Under the pieces are notes generated by a model. The model saw only the letters and a program-made list of their open reading frames with translations, did not search any database and was not told the DNA's origin. The translations under genes were made by a program, and so were the position numbers. A stretch of DNA of 36,689 bases, taken from positions 1-36,689 of IMG/VR virus record IMGVR_UViG_3300025610_000069. One strand, 5' to 3'. The DNA comes from a virus (lineage: Duplodnaviria; Caudoviricetes). Numbering within the stretch: position 1 is the first letter of the stretch; each line of letters opens with the position of its first letter. Positions 1-36,451 of the stretch are shown here, piece by piece.

Positions 1-41
1 GTTGCACGTACACGCACACGCGCACACTAGAATTTTTCCAA

Positions 42-190
42 TGTGCCACATTGTAAACACAATTGGTCCACCGTTGCCGATCCGCAACAGTGTGACAATC
101 TTGCAACAGTGTGTCCCATCGACAACAGTGTGACAATTTTGCAACACTTGGTCTGTGGCCGGTGTGCAACAGTGTGACAATTTTGCAACA
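42..190. repeat. Array of seven 18-bp TGT-N12-ACA boxes (three are near-identical TGTGACAATYTTGCAACA)
   Basis: Boxes at 42-59, 72-89 (CGT...ACA), 91-108, 110-127, 129-146, 154-171 and 173-190. Four are tandem with a 19-bp period, separated by a single G. Confidence 0.85.
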
Positions 191-198
191 CTTTGGAT

Positions 199-258
199 GT
201 TCATGGTTTGTTCCAGTTTTGTTCACGTCTGAGAACAAAGTGAGAACAAAACGAGAAC
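199..258. promoter_or_regulatory. Four overlapping alphaproteobacterial-type LexA (SOS) boxes in inverted arrangement
   Basis: GTTC at 199, 210 and 221 (7-nt spacers), then GAAC at 233, 244 and 255 (7-nt spacers). This matches the known GTTC-N7-GTTC / GAAC-N7-GAAC alphaproteobacterial LexA motif. Confidence 0.75.
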
Positions 259-328
259 GACCCCCCCACGGTGTTTTTATTATTGTCATGTTCTCTGCGT
301 CCATTCTGGGGGGTATTTTGAAAACCTG

Positions 329-357
329 TTGACACTTTGTTTAACATACTGTATAAT
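329..357 (+). promoter_or_regulatory. Consensus sigma70 promoter for the packaging/structural arm
   Basis: TTGACA (329-334), 17 bp, TATAAT (352-357), upstream of terS. Confidence 0.85.
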
Positions 358-366
358 AGCAGTATG
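345..366. promoter_or_regulatory. Operator-like palindrome enclosing the -10 element
   Basis: CATACTG-TATAATAG-CAGTATG, perfect 7-bp arms. Confidence 0.5.
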
Positions 367-448: not shown

Positions 449-913
449 ATGGCTAAGAAAACAGGTAAGTATCCCAGCTATGTAGAACCTAAGTCTCTGG
501 ACGCTGATATGACAGAGAGGGAACACCAGTTTGTCATTGAGCTTGTAGACAACCACCGTGAACCAGTTGATGCTTTTTTTGAAGCGGGGTTTGTCTGTAA
601 CCAAGAGTTAGCACATGCCAAAAACCGTGCCAAGCGGTTACAGCGCCACCTTTGGCTCCATATTGAAAAGCGGATCAAGGAGCGGGTAGGTGAAACGGCA
701 ACGTTGGCCCTGACTGTGCTAGAGCGTCTGATGCGCGAGGCAGAGTCTGAGAACGTCAAGCTCAACGCTGCCAGAGACATTCTGTCTAGGGCGGGTTACG
801 ATGCAGTCCACAAGCAGGAAACTGTAGTCAAAGAGGTCACGGACCTGACTGATGCAGAGCTAGACGAACAGATCGAGCGGTTGTCTAAAAACGTGGTAAA
901 GCTACGTGGATAA
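449..913 (+). CDS. terS: Terminase small subunit
   Basis: Overlaps terL start; N-terminal HTH-like segment and SENVKLNAARDILSRAG motif typical of phage TerS. Confidence 0.75.
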   Translation: MAKKTGKYPSYVEPKSLDADMTEREHQFVIELVDNHREPVDAFFEAGFVCNQELAHAKNRAKRLQRHLWLHIEKRIKERVGETATLALTVLERLMREAESENVKLNAARDILSRAGYDAVHKQETVVKEVTDLTDAELDEQIERLSKNVVKLRG

Positions 914-24365: not shown

Positions 24366-24785
24366 TCAGCTAAGTTCTATCTGCCTAGCCTTCTTTTCTT
24401 CCGGTACTTCCCGTACCAGTTTGATGCGCAGGATACCGTCGTTCAGACCAGCATCCTGTACATTTACATGCTCGCCCAATAGAAACAGCTTCTTGAACGG
24501 GCGGAACGCAATGCCTCCATATATAATCTCGGCATCCTTGTCTTCATGTTTGACACCGTTGGACGTAACAGACAGAATGTCTTCCTTTACGTGAACGGAA
24601 ATGTCCTCCTTCTTAAATCCGGCAACGGCCATGGTGATCTCATAGCTGTCTTCCCCCAGCTTTACAACGCTGTGCGGTGGGAAGTTCTGGTTGCCTGACA
24701 TTACTTCTGCAACCTTGTGCATATTGTCAAACAGGCGCTCAAATCCAAGAGCAGAGTCCGATATGGACGGGAACATAATAGTCAT
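24366..24785 (-). CDS. hsp20: Small heat-shock protein (Hsp20/IbpA-like)
   Basis: LGFERLFD...NFPPH...YEITMAVAGF...GIAFRPFKKLF.L...AGLNDGILRI; alpha-crystallin domain. Confidence 0.95.
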   Translation of the reverse strand: MTIMFPSISDSALGFERLFDNMHKVAEVMSGNQNFPPHSVVKLGEDSYEITMAVAGFKKEDISVHVKEDILSVTSNGVKHEDKDAEIIYGGIAFRPFKKLFLLGEHVNVQDAGLNDGILRIKLVREVPEEKKARQIELS

Positions 24786-24832
24786 TTGTTTCTCCCAATT
24801 GGCAAGAATTAGAGGCCCAGGATTGGCACCTC
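24786..24832 (-). ncRNA. ROSE-like RNA thermometer in the hsp20 5' UTR
   Basis: Minus-strand UUCUU(G)CC-AAUU-GGGAGAA hairpin sequesters the SD with a bulged G; preceded by a GAGGU(G)CCA-AUCC-UGGGCCUC hairpin. Confidence 0.6.
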
Positions 24833-24838
24833 AAAAAA

Positions 24839-24867
24839 AGTATACCACAAAACCATAGGTTTGTCTA
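24839..24867 (-). promoter_or_regulatory. Sigma70-type promoter for hsp20
   Basis: Minus strand TAGACA, 17 bp, TATACT, with TGn extension. Confidence 0.7.
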
Positions 24868-25425
24868 CCTAAATGGTGGACCCCATGCCCAGCCGGTCAG
24901 GCTATATCGCACACCTTTGATAACAGGCTGTACCCTGTGGTAGTAGTAAGACGGGAAGATCACGATCTTGCCTGCTCTTCTCAAGGCAGGCTCAGGGATC
25001 ACGCGCTTCCTGTACGGAGCACTGGGAGACCCCCAGCTGAACTGAAAGTCTCCCCCTTCGTAGTCTTCATTGAGCACAACGTTGAACGTCAGCTTGCGGC
25101 ATTTGTTCCCCGGCTGCACATCGTGGTGCCACCCGTACCTCTCCTGCATAGTGTACTTGCTCAGCTGTAGGTTCTCTAGCTCGGTCAGGTCAAACAGCCA
25201 ACCCATCTCAAAGTTGGCCGTCTGAACCCAATCAAAGACAATCGACCTGAACTTCTCGTCTTCCAAGGCATAGATGGAATTGTTTCTGATCTGTGTCTTT
25301 GTCTGACCGTCTAGCACCTGTGCCTCCTGCTCTTCGAAGTTCTGGCTCAGCTGCATAACAGCTTTGCAGAACTCCTCCGGCATGTCAGGCACTGAGCCAC
25401 CAGAGTAGTAGATGTCACCGTACAT
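24865..25425 (-). CDS. 2OG-Fe(II) oxygenase (prolyl-hydroxylase-like)
   Basis: YGWHHD (HxD), RKLT, YEGGDF, IFPS...HRVQPV..GVRYSL motifs. Confidence 0.9.
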   Translation of the reverse strand: MYGDIYYSGGSVPDMPEEFCKAVMQLSQNFEEQEAQVLDGQTKTQIRNNSIYALEDEKFRSIVFDWVQTANFEMGWLFDLTELENLQLSKYTMQERYGWHHDVQPGNKCRKLTFNVVLNEDYEGGDFQFSWGSPSAPYRKRVIPEPALRRAGKIVIFPSYYYHRVQPVIKGVRYSLTGWAWGPPFR

Positions 25426-27360: not shown

Positions 27361-28162
27361 TCTCCCCCGGCTCCACAAGGAACACCGGGCGTCCAGACCT
27401 GAACTTGGTCTCAAACTTCTCCCAGCACGTGTGCTTGTGAGAACAATATGAACAATTGACGCCCAGCTTCTTGCCTCCGCTAGGTCGGTCATGTACCGGC
27501 TCAAAAGCCCGCTCAGGCGGTTCTGGCTGCGATACGGCCTTCTTGATCTCTGCGATCTTCATCTCCGTGTTCTCCAGCTGGGAGTGCGTATACGTGGCAA
27601 GCTCTCCGCTGGACTTGTCAAAGGCCAAGAACGTACCACGGGTCTTGCCTAGTGCGTTACCATAGCCGCTGATCTGGCTGATATACCCAAAGGCATCGTC
27701 ATCGGGCAGTGTACCGTTCTTGAACTTCTTCATGCTGTACGACGAGGCGGACTTGATATCGACCAACTCGTCGTCTATGAAGCAGTCGATATGCCCCTTG
27801 ATCCCATCGACCTCGATCTCTGCTTGCTGGTTCGAGACATGATGACCAGCTTCTTTAGCAAGGTAGATCAACAGTGCCTCAACGATGTCACCGATCATGA
27901 ACTTCAACCGGGTCTGTGGGCTGAAGTCTTCTGCTTGATCGTCGCCGTTGATGTCGTACCACAGAGAGCGAGAACACGGCTTGCCAATGTTAGACATCCG
28001 CAGCCTTGGCTTGGACTCTGCCGTCCCCATCCACAGTTGTCTCCGCACTGCGTCCATCACCGTGCTGCCTAGGGCGAACAACGCCTCTTGGTCTGGATTC
28101 TTGGTTCCTTGGTCTACCAGCTGATAGATGTCATCTACCAGTGTGTCAATTGTCTTCGTCAT
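27338..28162 (-). CDS. Cas4-like PD-(D/E)XK exonuclease
   Basis: RMSNIGKPC..SLWY, GHID...VDIKS, QISGY, CSYCSHKHTC (1+3 Cys Fe-S pattern). Confidence 0.8.
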   Translation of the reverse strand: MTKTIDTLVDDIYQLVDQGTKNPDQEALFALGSTVMDAVRRQLWMGTAESKPRLRMSNIGKPCSRSLWYDINGDDQAEDFSPQTRLKFMIGDIVEALLIYLAKEAGHHVSNQQAEIEVDGIKGHIDCFIDDELVDIKSASSYSMKKFKNGTLPDDDAFGYISQISGYGNALGKTRGTFLAFDKSSGELATYTHSQLENTEMKIAEIKKAVSQPEPPERAFEPVHDRPSGGKKLGVNCSYCSHKHTCWEKFETKFRSGRPVFLVEPGENASGHTF

Positions 28163-28760
28163 ATTTCACCTTTACAATGTTTTTGTGACGCTTTGCTTTT
28201 CCGTTCTTAACCTTACTGAGTTCAGATTGATTGTACCCATGACACTCAGCGAACTCTCTCATGGACATGTCCGTGACCCTGTGTTGAACACCGTTGTCAT
28301 AAGTGATGGTAAACGGTCCTAGGTACTTTGGGTTGTTGATGCCCCGCAGCTTGTCCCTGAACTCTTCGCCATAACTCTTGACTGGTCTGAAGAAACGCTT
28401 GCCACCGATGTTCTTGTTATAGAAGTTATCGTCTTCAAGAACATTCAGATCGACCTGCATCTTCATCTCGTTGTAGTACAGGTCACGCTTGTTTCTACAT
28501 AACAACAAAATTGCAAAGGTGAACTGCTTCTTTCCAAGTTTGGCTATCAATGGTGCCAACTCCTTGGAACTTGAGCTATAGTACCTCCAGTTGCTCTCCG
28601 TTGTACGCTTTCCCCGACTGGTTCTGTATAGGTGCTTGCATCCTATGTAGCTTTTGCCTGACTCCTTGTGGGTGATGCGGTAGACAAATCCAAAATGGTC
28701 TCCCGGATTGAACTCGCCTACCGCATCTATGTCCCAATGTCCGTACTTAGAACGGGACAT
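28146..28760 (-). CDS. GIY-YIG endonuclease (Seg-like) with C-terminal DNA-binding modules
   Basis: GFVYRITHKESGKSYIG, YYSSS, conserved E and YN; C-terminal NUMOD/HTH-like segment. Confidence 0.75.
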   Translation of the reverse strand: MSRSKYGHWDIDAVGEFNPGDHFGFVYRITHKESGKSYIGCKHLYRTSRGKRTTESNWRYYSSSSKELAPLIAKLGKKQFTFAILLLCRNKRDLYYNEMKMQVDLNVLEDDNFYNKNIGGKRFFRPVKSYGEEFRDKLRGINNPKYLGPFTITYDNGVQHRVTDMSMREFAECHGYNQSELSKVKNGKAKRHKNIVKVKYDEDN

Positions 28761-33811: not shown

Positions 33812-34004
33812 CAGTACCCTCCATCTGGTCTTTGAAATGTCTGAGACGCGCAGCTGCATCGCACAGCTTTGAGTAGTCAGACATAAACATATCGCCGTCG
33901 CACTCCCACATCATCTGCACAGGGCCGTTTACCATCGGCACCAGTCGCTTGAGAAACTCCTCGGCGGTGATCTCTTCGTCGTAGCTCCATTTGTACGTCT
34001 TCAT
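33801..34004 (-). CDS. Hypothetical protein
   Basis: 67 aa, ATGA coupling. Confidence 0.55.
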   Translation of the reverse strand: MKTYKWSYDEEITAEEFLKRLVPMVNGPVQMMWECDGDMFMSDYSKLCDAAARLRHFKDQMEGTDEA

Positions 34005-34531
34005 GCTGCTTCCCTTTCTTTTAAGATTCCCAATCGTGCCTGTTCGAGATATCTTACAAAGTCCAACTCGGGCGGTTCACTAAACTTCCATTTGGCCATA
34101 TATGACTTCTCCTTGATGTAGTAGGTTCTATATGCTACCACGGCATCGTCGTCTTTGCAATAGTCGGGCATACACTGAGGCGGATCAGTGAACTTACCGC
34201 CCTTCAATCCATGCGGTAAATTTTTCAATGCCCAGAATATCCCACTGCTCTCGGTCTTGTGCGTCTTGCCGTACCTGAACGTGTACTCCTGAAGCAGGTT
34301 GCTAAGAAGCTGCCATAACCACTGGTAATTACTGCGGTTCTCCCTAGCCCAGACAGCACTGGGGTGGTTCTTATGGGTGGCCTTGTAGCAATTGATACTA
34401 GGGACACCGTCGATCTCATGGTGAGCAGTGCTGAGCAGCTGTGCGTACTCCAAGATCATCTTGACCACGTGCTTGTCACAGTGCATGGCAGCGCAACGCT
34501 GGGGGTCTCTGTCTAGGTAGAATATATTCAT
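34001..34531 (-). CDS. Pyrimidine-dimer DNA glycosylase (DenV)-related family protein
   Basis: MNIFYLD...HCDKHVVKMILEYAQLLSTAH...THKNHPSAVW...PQCMPD...AYRTYY; start at ATG 34531. Confidence 0.7.
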   Translation of the reverse strand: MNIFYLDRDPQRCAAMHCDKHVVKMILEYAQLLSTAHHEIDGVPSINCYKATHKNHPSAVWARENRSNYQWLWQLLSNLLQEYTFRYGKTHKTESSGIFWALKNLPHGLKGGKFTDPPQCMPDYCKDDDAVVAYRTYYIKEKSYMAKWKFSEPPELDFVRYLEQARLGILKEREAA

Positions 34532-34692
34532 TCCTCTTCCTCTATGATTTCGTCGTAGTATCCCATGGGGGTCAGGTTGTCGGTTTTCCAGTCGTTGTCC
34601 ATGACTTCCTTGGCGTCCCAGTACGGCATCCGGCGACGTTTGCCAGACACAGGCAATAGGGAAGCAATGGTGAAACAATTAGGCTTATCCAT
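34528..34692 (-). CDS. 54-aa hypothetical protein with acidic tail
   Basis: Hand translation MDKPNCFTIASLLPVSGKRRRMPYWD...DEIIEEEE; ATGA overlap with the downstream gene. Confidence 0.5.
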   Translation of the reverse strand: MDKPNCFTIASLLPVSGKRRRMPYWDAKEVMDNDWKTDNLTPMGYYDEIIEEEE

Positions 34693-35481: not shown

Positions 35482-36111
35482 TTAGTGCTTGGGATAGCTA
35501 ACTAGTGGGATTGTCTGGTCCCAACAGGCGCGACAATCGCCGCAGTTATTGCCCTGTGTCCGGGCGGGGCAGGCGTAGCCCTTAGGTGCGGCCGTGTACA
35601 CTTGCGAGCCATTGATACCCTGTGGCTTGTCTCCATCCAGTTTAGAGGCTGATACGCGCACATTAAGATTGTCTGGCATGGTGTTTCCAGCGGCGATCCA
35701 GTCGGCTACCATGCGTCGCTCTTGTGTCGGCAACCAGTACCGTATCGACGGGGTAAGACGTGCGATCTCGGCGATAGCGTCTAGCATATCGATCGATTGT
35801 AGATCGCCGCTATCGAACCAGCGATGGTATCCGTCTACGTTGTAGCGTTCAATCTGGAATACCATACTGGCAACCCATTGGTCGCGAGGGGTAGACTGCC
35901 ACCGGGCGAGGTTGTCTTTCCAGCCTTGATCGACGCTCGGCCGTATCTTTTGCAGCCGGCGAGCGTAGCAGCTGGCGCATGGGGTACCGGCAATCTTGGC
36001 CAATTTAGACCCCGTGATACAAGCGAATGCATCGATGGCAAACGTGGTACCGGGCATTTTAGTGTTGCCGGTACTGATCTTCCCGGCTTGTCTGGCGTCT
36101 TTTACTTTCAT
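35482..36111 (-). CDS. GP88-like Cys-rich protein (possible Fe-S / radical-SAM-related fold)
   Basis: NTKMPG, C-x13-CxxCYA, RWFDSGD, WLPTQE, PDNLNVRVS, CPA...CGDCRACW...H; start at ATG 36111. Confidence 0.7.
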   Translation of the reverse strand: MKVKDARQAGKISTGNTKMPGTTFAIDAFACITGSKLAKIAGTPCASCYARRLQKIRPSVDQGWKDNLARWQSTPRDQWVASMVFQIERYNVDGYHRWFDSGDLQSIDMLDAIAEIARLTPSIRYWLPTQERRMVADWIAAGNTMPDNLNVRVSASKLDGDKPQGINGSQVYTAAPKGYACPARTQGNNCGDCRACWDQTIPLVSYPKH

Positions 36112-36126
36112 GGGTTTTTCCCTACA

Positions 36127-36182
36127 GGTTAACACATTGGAACGGGTGACCATTGCTGGCCACCCGCTCGGACGTGTTAACC
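36127..36182 (-). promoter_or_regulatory. Long intergenic hairpin with internal loop (RNase III-type processing site candidate)
   Basis: GGUUAACACGU-CC-GAGCGGGUGGCCA-GCAA-UGGUCACCCGUUC-CA-AUGUGUUAACC. Confidence 0.55.
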
Positions 36183-36359
36183 GGCGAAGTTCCATCTGTT
36201 GTGGTGTTTGATATAAATTGTCCGCAACCCGAAACTTACCTTAAAAAATACCTTTCCCTTTTCGAGCTGATATTTTTTCTGAACCTTGCGACGCTTAGTC
36301 ATTCCCCATTTGTAGAACCGTGCGAGGTTGTCGGTTTTCGGCTGATATCCTTTTGACAT
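36177..36359 (-). CDS. First early gene; basic hypothetical protein
   Basis: AAGGA RBS before ATG 36359; 60 aa, K/R-rich. Confidence 0.55.
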   Translation of the reverse strand: MSKGYQPKTDNLARFYKWGMTKRRKVQKKYQLEKGKVFFKVSFGLRTIYIKHHNRWNFAG

Positions 36360-36412
36360 GGCAAATCCTTTCATTGTTGCCGTTGAAACAGTCTCTATAT
36401 TATATCCGAAAT

Positions 36413-36451
36413 TATGGCAAAATTGTGACAATGTGTATTCAATTTTGCATA
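36413..36451. promoter_or_regulatory. Two degenerate TGT-N12-A(T)A boxes upstream of the early arm
   Basis: 36413-36430 reads TGTCACAATTTTGCCATA on the minus strand; 36434-36451 reads TGTATTCAATTTTGCATA; minus-strand TATAAT at 36399-36404. Confidence 0.5.

Follow-up and report, generated by a model that had tools for sequence, protein, structure and literature searches.

A predicted terminal repeat filled with host-regulator boxes in a clade of aquatic alphaproteobacterial phages

A virus record of 36,689 bp (class linear, completeness 98%), the whole of which was analyzed and is called the window below, opens with a non-coding cassette (positions 42-258) in which boxes resembling the binding sites of host transcription regulators are massed between two conserved borders. 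Among relatives the borders are fixed and the filling turns over. From the match of the borders to the repeats of phages tf, TL and BA6, about the first 300 bases are predicted with good confidence to be a direct terminal repeat, with the cassette as its interior. As the selected function of the cassette we tentatively favor titration of host regulators, ranked ahead of promoter gating, which is itself ranked ahead of a coating of the genome end. In its fullest form the proposal is that the terminal repeat is an exchangeable, protein-free rack of decoy operators which would titrate LexA, NtrX and Fur, would be retuned box by box between close relatives, and would also display the NtrX recognition sequence in near-ideal form; taken as a whole, this is speculative and somewhat doubtful. 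The claim of the initial annotation that host transcription-factor sites lie at a genome end was borne out, both motifs being present in Rhodobacteraceae promoters and the region being a predicted terminal repeat.

The plus-strand arm of the window carries the small terminase gene terS (449..913, assigned by PHROGs; the first gene of the late arm), then the large terminase gene terL (906-2339), and genes for portal, tail fibres, scaffold, capsid and lysis; the minus-strand arm encodes primase/helicase, ThyX, DNA polymerase, ribonucleotide reductase, a 2OG-Fe(II) oxygenase and Hsp20. The ribonucleotide reductase is 77.5% identical to the enzyme of Roseobacter phage CRP-3, from which we infer an alphaproteobacterial host, probably a roseobacter; the sequencing runs that best contain the phage sequence are labeled freshwater metagenome. 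Identity of the window TerL to isolates was at most 60% among the matches listed, where close isolates may be missing, and the nearest isolates were Vibrio VPp1-like phages, Pelagibacter phage Baldr and LUZ24-like Pseudomonas phages. BLASTN of positions 1-470 against phage records, a collection that may lack close isolates, matched nothing. No integrase or repressor gene was found among the 49 ORFs scanned, and a search of bacterial genome contigs with TerL gave a best identity of 47% and no prophage form; these results give no support to a temperate phage or a carrier state with a LexA switch, nor to the repressor-free carrier state proposed earlier. Auxiliary genes (Hsp20 and 2OG-Fe(II) oxygenase) and a SegE-type GIY-YIG endonuclease are located at 24366-25425 and 28146-28760 in the replication arm. 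The early genes at 34001-34678 and 35482-36195 encode a DNA-binding protein, which matches a pyrimidine-dimer glycosylase at a borderline level, and a member of the GP88 family, the latter kept near the repeat across the clade.

Relatives were sampled as 80 TerL loci; about 1200 TerL-matching stretches are estimated in IMG/VR. Nineteen of the 80 lacked upstream DNA, leaving 61, and one lacked an anchor, leaving 60; removal of 9 anchored sequences shorter than 230 nt and of 14 redundant ones gave a set of 38 non-redundant sequences (the window and 37 relatives). Boxes were counted in the 230 nt before the C-run of each sequence, and one locus with a partial TerL (L080) was omitted from the TerL tree.

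Perfect alphaproteobacterial SOS boxes occur four times in the 36,689 bp, all inside 42-258. The exact GTTC-N7-GTTC or GAAC-N7-GAAC boxes start at 199 and 210 on the plus strand and at 233 and 244 on the minus strand, and form two triple half-site arrays set head to head: three GTTC half-sites with an 11-bp period (199..224, plus) and three in the opposite orientation (233..258, minus). The 26-nt arms are 73% complementary and can be folded into a hairpin (z -2.9). The other motif, box A, is an 18-bp palindrome, TGT(T/G)(G/A)CA-N4-TG(C/T)(A/C)ACA, with copies at 72, 91, 110 and 129 and at 154 and 173, the period being mostly 19 bp. The box A array proper (91..190) has strong copies at 91, 129, 154 and 173 and a weak copy at 110, all predicted as likely NtrX sites, and is preceded by two weak copies (42..89), of which 42-59 is an outline and 72-89 is the sixth-best match of the host matrix in the genome. 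Outlines of the form TGT-N12-ACA start at 42, 91, 110, 129, 154, 173 and 220, the last as a by-product of the SOS array. Among 5000 dinucleotide shuffles of 42-258, none reached four SOS boxes (mean 0.02) and none reached seven TGT-N12-ACA outlines (mean 0.69), in agreement with the earlier report of two motif arrays in non-coding DNA.

Strict boxes make up 54% of the 230 nt before the C-run and about 80% when weak boxes are counted (our own arithmetic), so the description of this DNA as almost wholly built of motifs stands if weak boxes are included and fails for strict boxes. The C7 run (261-267), the G6 run (308-313) and the consensus sigma-70 promoter of the terminase/structural arm (329..357, plus strand; TTGACA-17-TATAAT, 12/12 matches) were confirmed. 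The distance from the end of the last SOS box to the -35 was measured as 70 nt, the value given before, and no box touches the promoter. The three small overlapping ORFs had no Pfam match and an Rfam scan gave a chance match only (E 0.41), and by these results an RNA or ORF reading of the cassette was rejected. At the other end of the window a lone box A, also Pho-box-like (36413..36430), covers the place where the -35 would be expected in a putative early promoter on the minus strand, whose TATAAT at about 36399-36404 was placed by eye and is absent from the promoter scan; this box is the fourth-best match of the phage matrix in the genome (16.9) and falls outside the top 12 of the host matrix.

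The outer border of the predicted repeat (11..37, plus strand) is a CAC-rich tract followed by GAATTTTT; it is kept in most relatives and is likely a terminase processing signal. The inner border begins with the C7 run on the plus strand and continues with a conserved element (287..322, plus strand; consensus of 37 sequences) that comprises GTCCATT, the G6 run and TTTT.AAAA and is the predicted cut zone. The repeat itself is predicted at 1..311, with its outer end near base 1 and its inner end at about 290 to 311, from border homology and from offsets in tf, TL, BA6 and phiM5; the borders were compared with those of these four phages by eye, with no alignment statistic. Of the 61 relatives with upstream DNA, 60 have the C-run (three of them anchored by hand), and after it nearly all relatives have the conserved GTCCATT-G-run element and then the promoter, the distance from C-run to G-run being 45-50 nt in 35 of 37. 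The two borders lie 220-349 nt apart in 29 sequences.

The repeats annotated in tf and TL are 186 and 206 bp long; in window orientation both have a C-rich tract and T-run at the start and terminate within a G6 run downstream of the C-run. BA6 has an exact 115-bp end repeat which starts 10 nt before the CAC-rich tract and stops 35 nt past the C-run, and the annotated repeat of phiM5, which shares the C-run and G-run only, stops 42 nt past the C-run; across the four phages the distance from the C-run to the repeat end is 29-42 nt. In near-identical relatives (L001-L003) the window end is joined to the window start via about 57 nt, and the cassette lies in a gene-free gap between divergent arms, upstream of terS. 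The window and one other contig (L033), 2 of 14 contigs starting nearby, start at the offset from the border that is seen at the ends of tf and BA6, a coincidence that lends modest support to a terminal repeat. Against a terminal repeat stand the record itself, within which no exact end repeat was found, and a check of 36 early-arm contigs, not one of which stopped at the G-run. As the C7 and G6 runs and the CAC-rich tract are terminal-repeat borders, the genome-end recognition that was among the models of the initial annotation applies to the borders; both runs, which it had counted with the cassette, are present but belong, like the left CAC-rich tract, to the conserved border DNA. In phage Baldr an unannotated ORF (L164:39008-39444) stands before a gap with the same border motifs and is small-terminase-like by position; it had no match to the window TerS by tblastn.

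Between these borders, 91 SOS boxes were counted in 25 of the 38 sequences (shuffle mean 0.3) and 53 strict box A copies in 22 of the 38 (shuffle mean 0.1). Half-site spacing was N7 in 91 cases, N6 in 3 and N8 in none, and neighboring spacings were not enriched. Fur-like words (11 in 6/38) and the palindrome GGTCA-N7-TGACC (13 in 4/38), both patterns picked post hoc, were less widespread. At least one box class was present in 36 of 38 sequences and at least two classes in 25; 13 had no SOS box in the cassette and 2 had no recognized box. Across 24 loci the distance between the last SOS box and the -35 varies from 70 to 214 nt, the order of the arrays is flipped in 5, and both box orientations are found in 17 of 25 SOS-bearing loci. 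A conserved border of 65-79 nt always stands between the boxes and the late promoter, and the spacing has no fixed phase.

On the TerL tree (77-100% identity) the filling differs between sister branches. Two relatives whose TerS proteins are 97% identical (L006 and L008) have common borders and a common SOS array but different box A slots, and one with a TerL 98% identical to that of the window (L004) has GGTCA-N7-TGACC in the place of the window's box A. The same palindrome stands in place of, or beside, box A in the cassettes of L004, L005, L006 and L022; in hosts it was found in 15 of 151 genomes against 4 for the control, with most matches inside ORFs and no common neighbor except two LysR genes. 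The cassette slot of L035, L036 and L037 (up to 400 nt upstream of the C-run) is occupied by arrays of GAGAATCATTCTCA-type words, which we take to be Fur-like boxes. In L035 and L037 the SOS boxes are shifted to the early side, where L035 also has two DnaA-like boxes. Additional boxes exist outside the predicted repeat; on the early side, 6 of 28 relatives have box A matches and 7 of 28 have SOS boxes. In L040:1-98 and at the L608 contig end the slot is filled by a plain 11-bp tandem run, at which the assembly is broken, and in L046 the stretch from border to promoter contains a 10-11 bp repeat.

We hold with high confidence, from sequence comparison, that host LexA would bind the SOS boxes of the cassette. 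In Rhodobacteraceae the exact box precedes lexA in 29 of 30 cases and recA in 27 of 30, and half of the lexA promoters (15 of 30) carry a triple half-site array like that of the phage. With a LexA matrix built from host sites only, phage boxes scored 18.4, host boxes 19.9 and random cores 10.9, and the four cassette boxes were the top 4 in the phage genome. At non-core positions the phage boxes track host recA boxes (r 0.67, permutation p 0.009). None of the 8 gammaproteobacterial-host relatives examined had an alphaproteobacterial SOS box or box A. Phage tf carries three E. coli-type SOS boxes, two within the repeat and one immediately beyond it (3 against 0.03 in shuffles, for a post hoc pattern), and BA6 has one perfect E. 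coli-type box outside its repeat; the remaining six have no SOS box, partly on records that do not hold the full repeat. A swap of boxes in relatives infecting other hosts, suggested by the initial annotation as a check, was seen in 2 of 8 gamma-host relatives and not in six. The SOS boxes of tf (L163:96-274) are unannotated in its record, and the third abuts an early -35-like hexamer. In the stretches examined of phiM5, ppBeUSDA76-2 and Venkman, neither alphaproteobacterial SOS boxes nor box A were present.

The second factor had been taken for a metabolic repressor; an envelope response regulator, NtrX, is more likely. On balance the pattern of host sites favors NtrX for box A; the alternatives are CenR or some other regulator of the envelope. 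Of 401 alphaproteobacterial genomes, 21 contained strict box A and 1 the reversed control, the box A matches adjoining porins at 5 loci and also other envelope genes. With a matrix made from phage boxes only, 18 of 30 Rhodobacteraceae showed one conserved site in the interval between the porin gene and DUF3576 (controls: shuffles 0.5%, lexA 1/30, recA 0/30), and there were matches upstream of a cwlJ-like hydrolase, a putative counterpart of RSP_1860, in 7 of 30 and upstream of mraZ in 0 of 29. At the autoregulated ntrY promoter the score on this matrix reached 8 or more in only 2 of 30, but 27 of 29 retain the right half-site in exactly the same register immediately after the ntrC stop codon; the left half overlaps coding sequence. 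A host matrix from porin and ntrY sites placed 173, 129, 91 and 154 at the top of the phage genome, a ranking with some circularity, since it was the phage matrix that first located those host sites. The host median is reached by 9% of the 69 distinct phage copies of box A. The conserved 18-bp host site, present between porin and DUF3576 (L371-L400) and from the ntrC stop to ntrY (L469-L498), may represent the genuine operator of NtrX in Rhodobacteraceae.

NtrX ChIP in R. sphaeroides peaks most strongly at two places, the ntrY promoter and RSP_1860, and NtrX activates division and cell-wall operons and represses a wall hydrolase, according to the accessible part of PMC7240162. For RSP_1860 the table of the CenR regulon gives a 15-mer that is the box A core, and CenR enrichment there is weak (PMC9275681, accessible part). 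The published NtrX patterns are mutually discordant: CAA-N3-5-TTG (Brucella) and CAA-N2-5-TTG (S. meliloti) are given in the accessible text of PMC9223101, and GCA-N9-TGC (R. sphaeroides) in that of PMC7240162. Of these, only CAA-N2-5-TTG is enriched in cassettes (146 vs 42, compared with 36 vs 31 for CAA-N3-5-TTG and 2 vs 4 for GCA-N9-TGC). As an 18-bp palindrome box A differs from the published patterns; of the three NtrX-target promoter classes tested, it was absent at mraZ and is kept at least in part at the other two (ntrY and the cwlJ-like hydrolase).

The loose box A pattern also catches the pstS Pho box in hosts, and a first enrichment in Rhodobacteraceae (52/301; control 14 genomes, our own count) was mostly this Pho box and was discarded. 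Strict box A gave 0 matches in three single genomes, and with one mismatch it was found in 99 of 251 genomes, the reversed control being about as frequent (not counted exactly); genome-wide counts accordingly do not show box A in Rhodobacteraceae, and only orthologous promoters do. Several other factors were tried and rejected. For PpsR/CrtJ, whose site we take to be TGT-N12-ACA with inner TGTc-N10-gACA, the fourth base of box A is T or G, with C in 5%, and no photosynthesis gene was among the family-matched host neighbors. Direct repeats of TGTCA(T/C) at an 11-bp period, the PhoB pattern, numbered 0 in 38 cassettes, and the CtrA pattern gave 1 match in 38; RegA and FNR were rejected, as were PhaR and ChvI, whose patterns in the accessible parts of PMC12542648 and PMC9731502 do not fit. 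The CenR pattern TGA-N8-TGA has G at position 13 in 24 of 31 sites listed in the accessible part of PMC9275681 (counted by eye), where strict box A has C or A, and it occurred 18 times in cassettes against 9.5 in shuffles (maximum 21). The SAR11 phages Baldr and HTVC106P have box A in the intergenic gap upstream of terL, and in a viral scan with box A alone the border element accompanied only 6 of 124 loci.

Under titration, the leading model, the interior of the terminal repeat would act as a copy-number-dependent sink that draws LexA and a second regulator, likely NtrX, off the host chromosome. The sink would grow as phage DNA replicates, each mature genome contributing two copies, and tens of genomes would present hundreds of sites to a regulator pool presumed limited from pool sizes in E. 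coli only. SOS repair and recombination genes would be expected to come on, and control of cell division and the envelope to relax, with no phage protein required. Such a sink fits best because the number and quality of sites are conserved without geometry, beside a promoter that needs no activator; the ranking of cassette boxes as top 4 genome matches by host matrices, and the change of box A slots between L006 and L008 while borders and SOS array stay, argue in the same direction. Titration of LexA or Fur by multicopy operators is established practice. Set against this, an interchangeable filling suits any bound protein at least equally well, 13 cassettes have no SOS box and 2 no recognized box, the phage sites are host-grade and not better, and SOS induction could wake competing prophages. 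The NtrX part is further weakened by the result at mraZ and by the two published patterns that are not enriched. The third tf box by the early -35-like hexamer and the box A over the -35 at 36413 point to promoter control, and a host-state gate, in which bound LexA and NtrX would control the flanking promoters or the access of terminase to the borders at a distance, is the next reading, though a rather doubtful one. With the cassette between divergent arms in circular or concatemeric DNA, as its position in the near-identical relatives indicates, cleavage or dilution of LexA would time late expression or packaging. The early-side boxes of relatives are consistent with a gate, as are the membership of NtrX in the NtrC family (PMC7240162, accessible part) and the activation or repression of phage promoters by CtrA bound in phage DTRs and gaps (PMC9437464, accessible part); but no box overlaps the late promoter of the window, the intervening border imposes no fixed phase, the same slot is taken by different factors, and the absence of integrase, repressor and prophage form speaks against a host-state switch.

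An unlikely further role would be that of an end coat, the bound host proteins shielding the DNA tip that enters first, helping to draw DNA in, or shaping the end for duplication or cutting. The boxes do occupy the space between two predicted processing borders, their filling is interchangeable, and the injection-stop region of T5 with its DnaA boxes offers a parallel; yet BA6, TL and phiM5 have borders with no detected boxes inside the repeat, so that processing does not depend on a coat, bound proteins are evicted by enzymes of the RecBCD type, and additional boxes lie outside the predicted repeat. That the arrays instead serve a protein of the phage itself, TerS or the early DNA-binding protein, and only look like host sites, we regard as improbable. 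The adjoining terminase genes, the place inside the predicted repeat, the period of about 11 bp in both arrays, the hairpin capacity and double orientation of the SOS arrays, and the short SRL/SRR repeat arrays beside the T7 terminal repeat would all suit such a protein, but the spacing is exactly the host N7, the non-core positions follow host recA boxes, the same triple array stands in half of the host lexA promoters, the motifs change where TerS is 97% identical, and the 8 gamma-host relatives examined lack the alphaproteobacterial boxes, with E. coli-type boxes in tf. Least probable is a neutral filler of slippage-amplified repeats in an unconstrained spacer: copy numbers do vary widely, and the L040/L608 contig has its plain tandem run, but sequences of little similarity converge on two host motifs over the whole TerL tree, and slippage would be at odds with neighboring spacings that are not enriched. 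Titration remains the reading that we rank first.

Repeated protein-binding words at a genome end are likewise present in T5 (DnaA boxes) and T7 (SRL/SRR); in the window no two-step-injection genes were seen, and the words match host promoters and are swapped among close relatives. That a phage terminal repeat may hold host sites is not a new idea, since CtrA sites are massed, with turnover, in the DTRs and intergenic gaps of alphaproteobacterial phages and were tested there (Mascolo et al. 2022, PMC9437464, accessible part). The CtrA-site phages are alike in having host-regulator sites at the terminal repeat or divergent gap and in turnover between close relatives; here, instead, the sites match those of LexA, likely NtrX and a Fur-like factor, several classes swap in one slot, the gene-free repeat is about 300 bp long, and no site overlaps the adjacent promoter. 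LexA has been co-opted by GIL01, coliphage 186 and CTXphi, and Spo0A sites occur in phi29 (summarized in the accessible part of PMC9437464); in those phages the boxes lie in promoters as switches, whereas the window boxes are massed at least 70 nt upstream in a genome with no integrase or repressor found. The architecture itself is that of LUZ24-like and VPp1-like phages (tf HE611333, TL HG518155, BA6 MK483107), in which the repeat likewise lies between divergent arms before a sigma-70 promoter and terS, with the C-run and G6 at the inner border and the C-rich tract and T-run at the outer; the interior in the window is longer and filled with alphaproteobacterial boxes. Cobaviruses have repeats of 159-173 bp in the same kind of gap (PMC6775973, accessible part), but the window differs in gene order, its tail fibres lying between portal and scaffold, and PhoH had no match among the 49 ORFs scanned. 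Our literature search, to which most subscription papers were external, returned no LexA/NtrX-like arrays filling a short podovirus repeat (Fig. S9 of the cobavirus paper may show boxes) and no swapping of several regulator classes in one slot.

If these assignments hold, a widespread clade of aquatic alphaproteobacterial phages devotes its genome ends to host-regulator sites, and a 220-bp fragment would be suited to a direct test of DNA decoys as a takeover strategy. The 18-bp site is also a candidate for the NtrX site, for which published motifs disagree (PMC9223101, accessible part), and the porin is a new predicted target. Among the isolates checked, the alpha or gamma type of SOS box tracks host class, which could help to assign hosts to uncultured phages. 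Triple SOS arrays of the alphaproteobacterial type are also common elsewhere among viral contigs, an IMG/VR scan (L679-L756) giving an estimate of about 380 stretches: of 66 loci not assigned to this clade, 25 have at least 4 SOS boxes within about 600 nt, with up to 10 in one contig (L755), and another (L745), with a gp88 homologue only, has 14.
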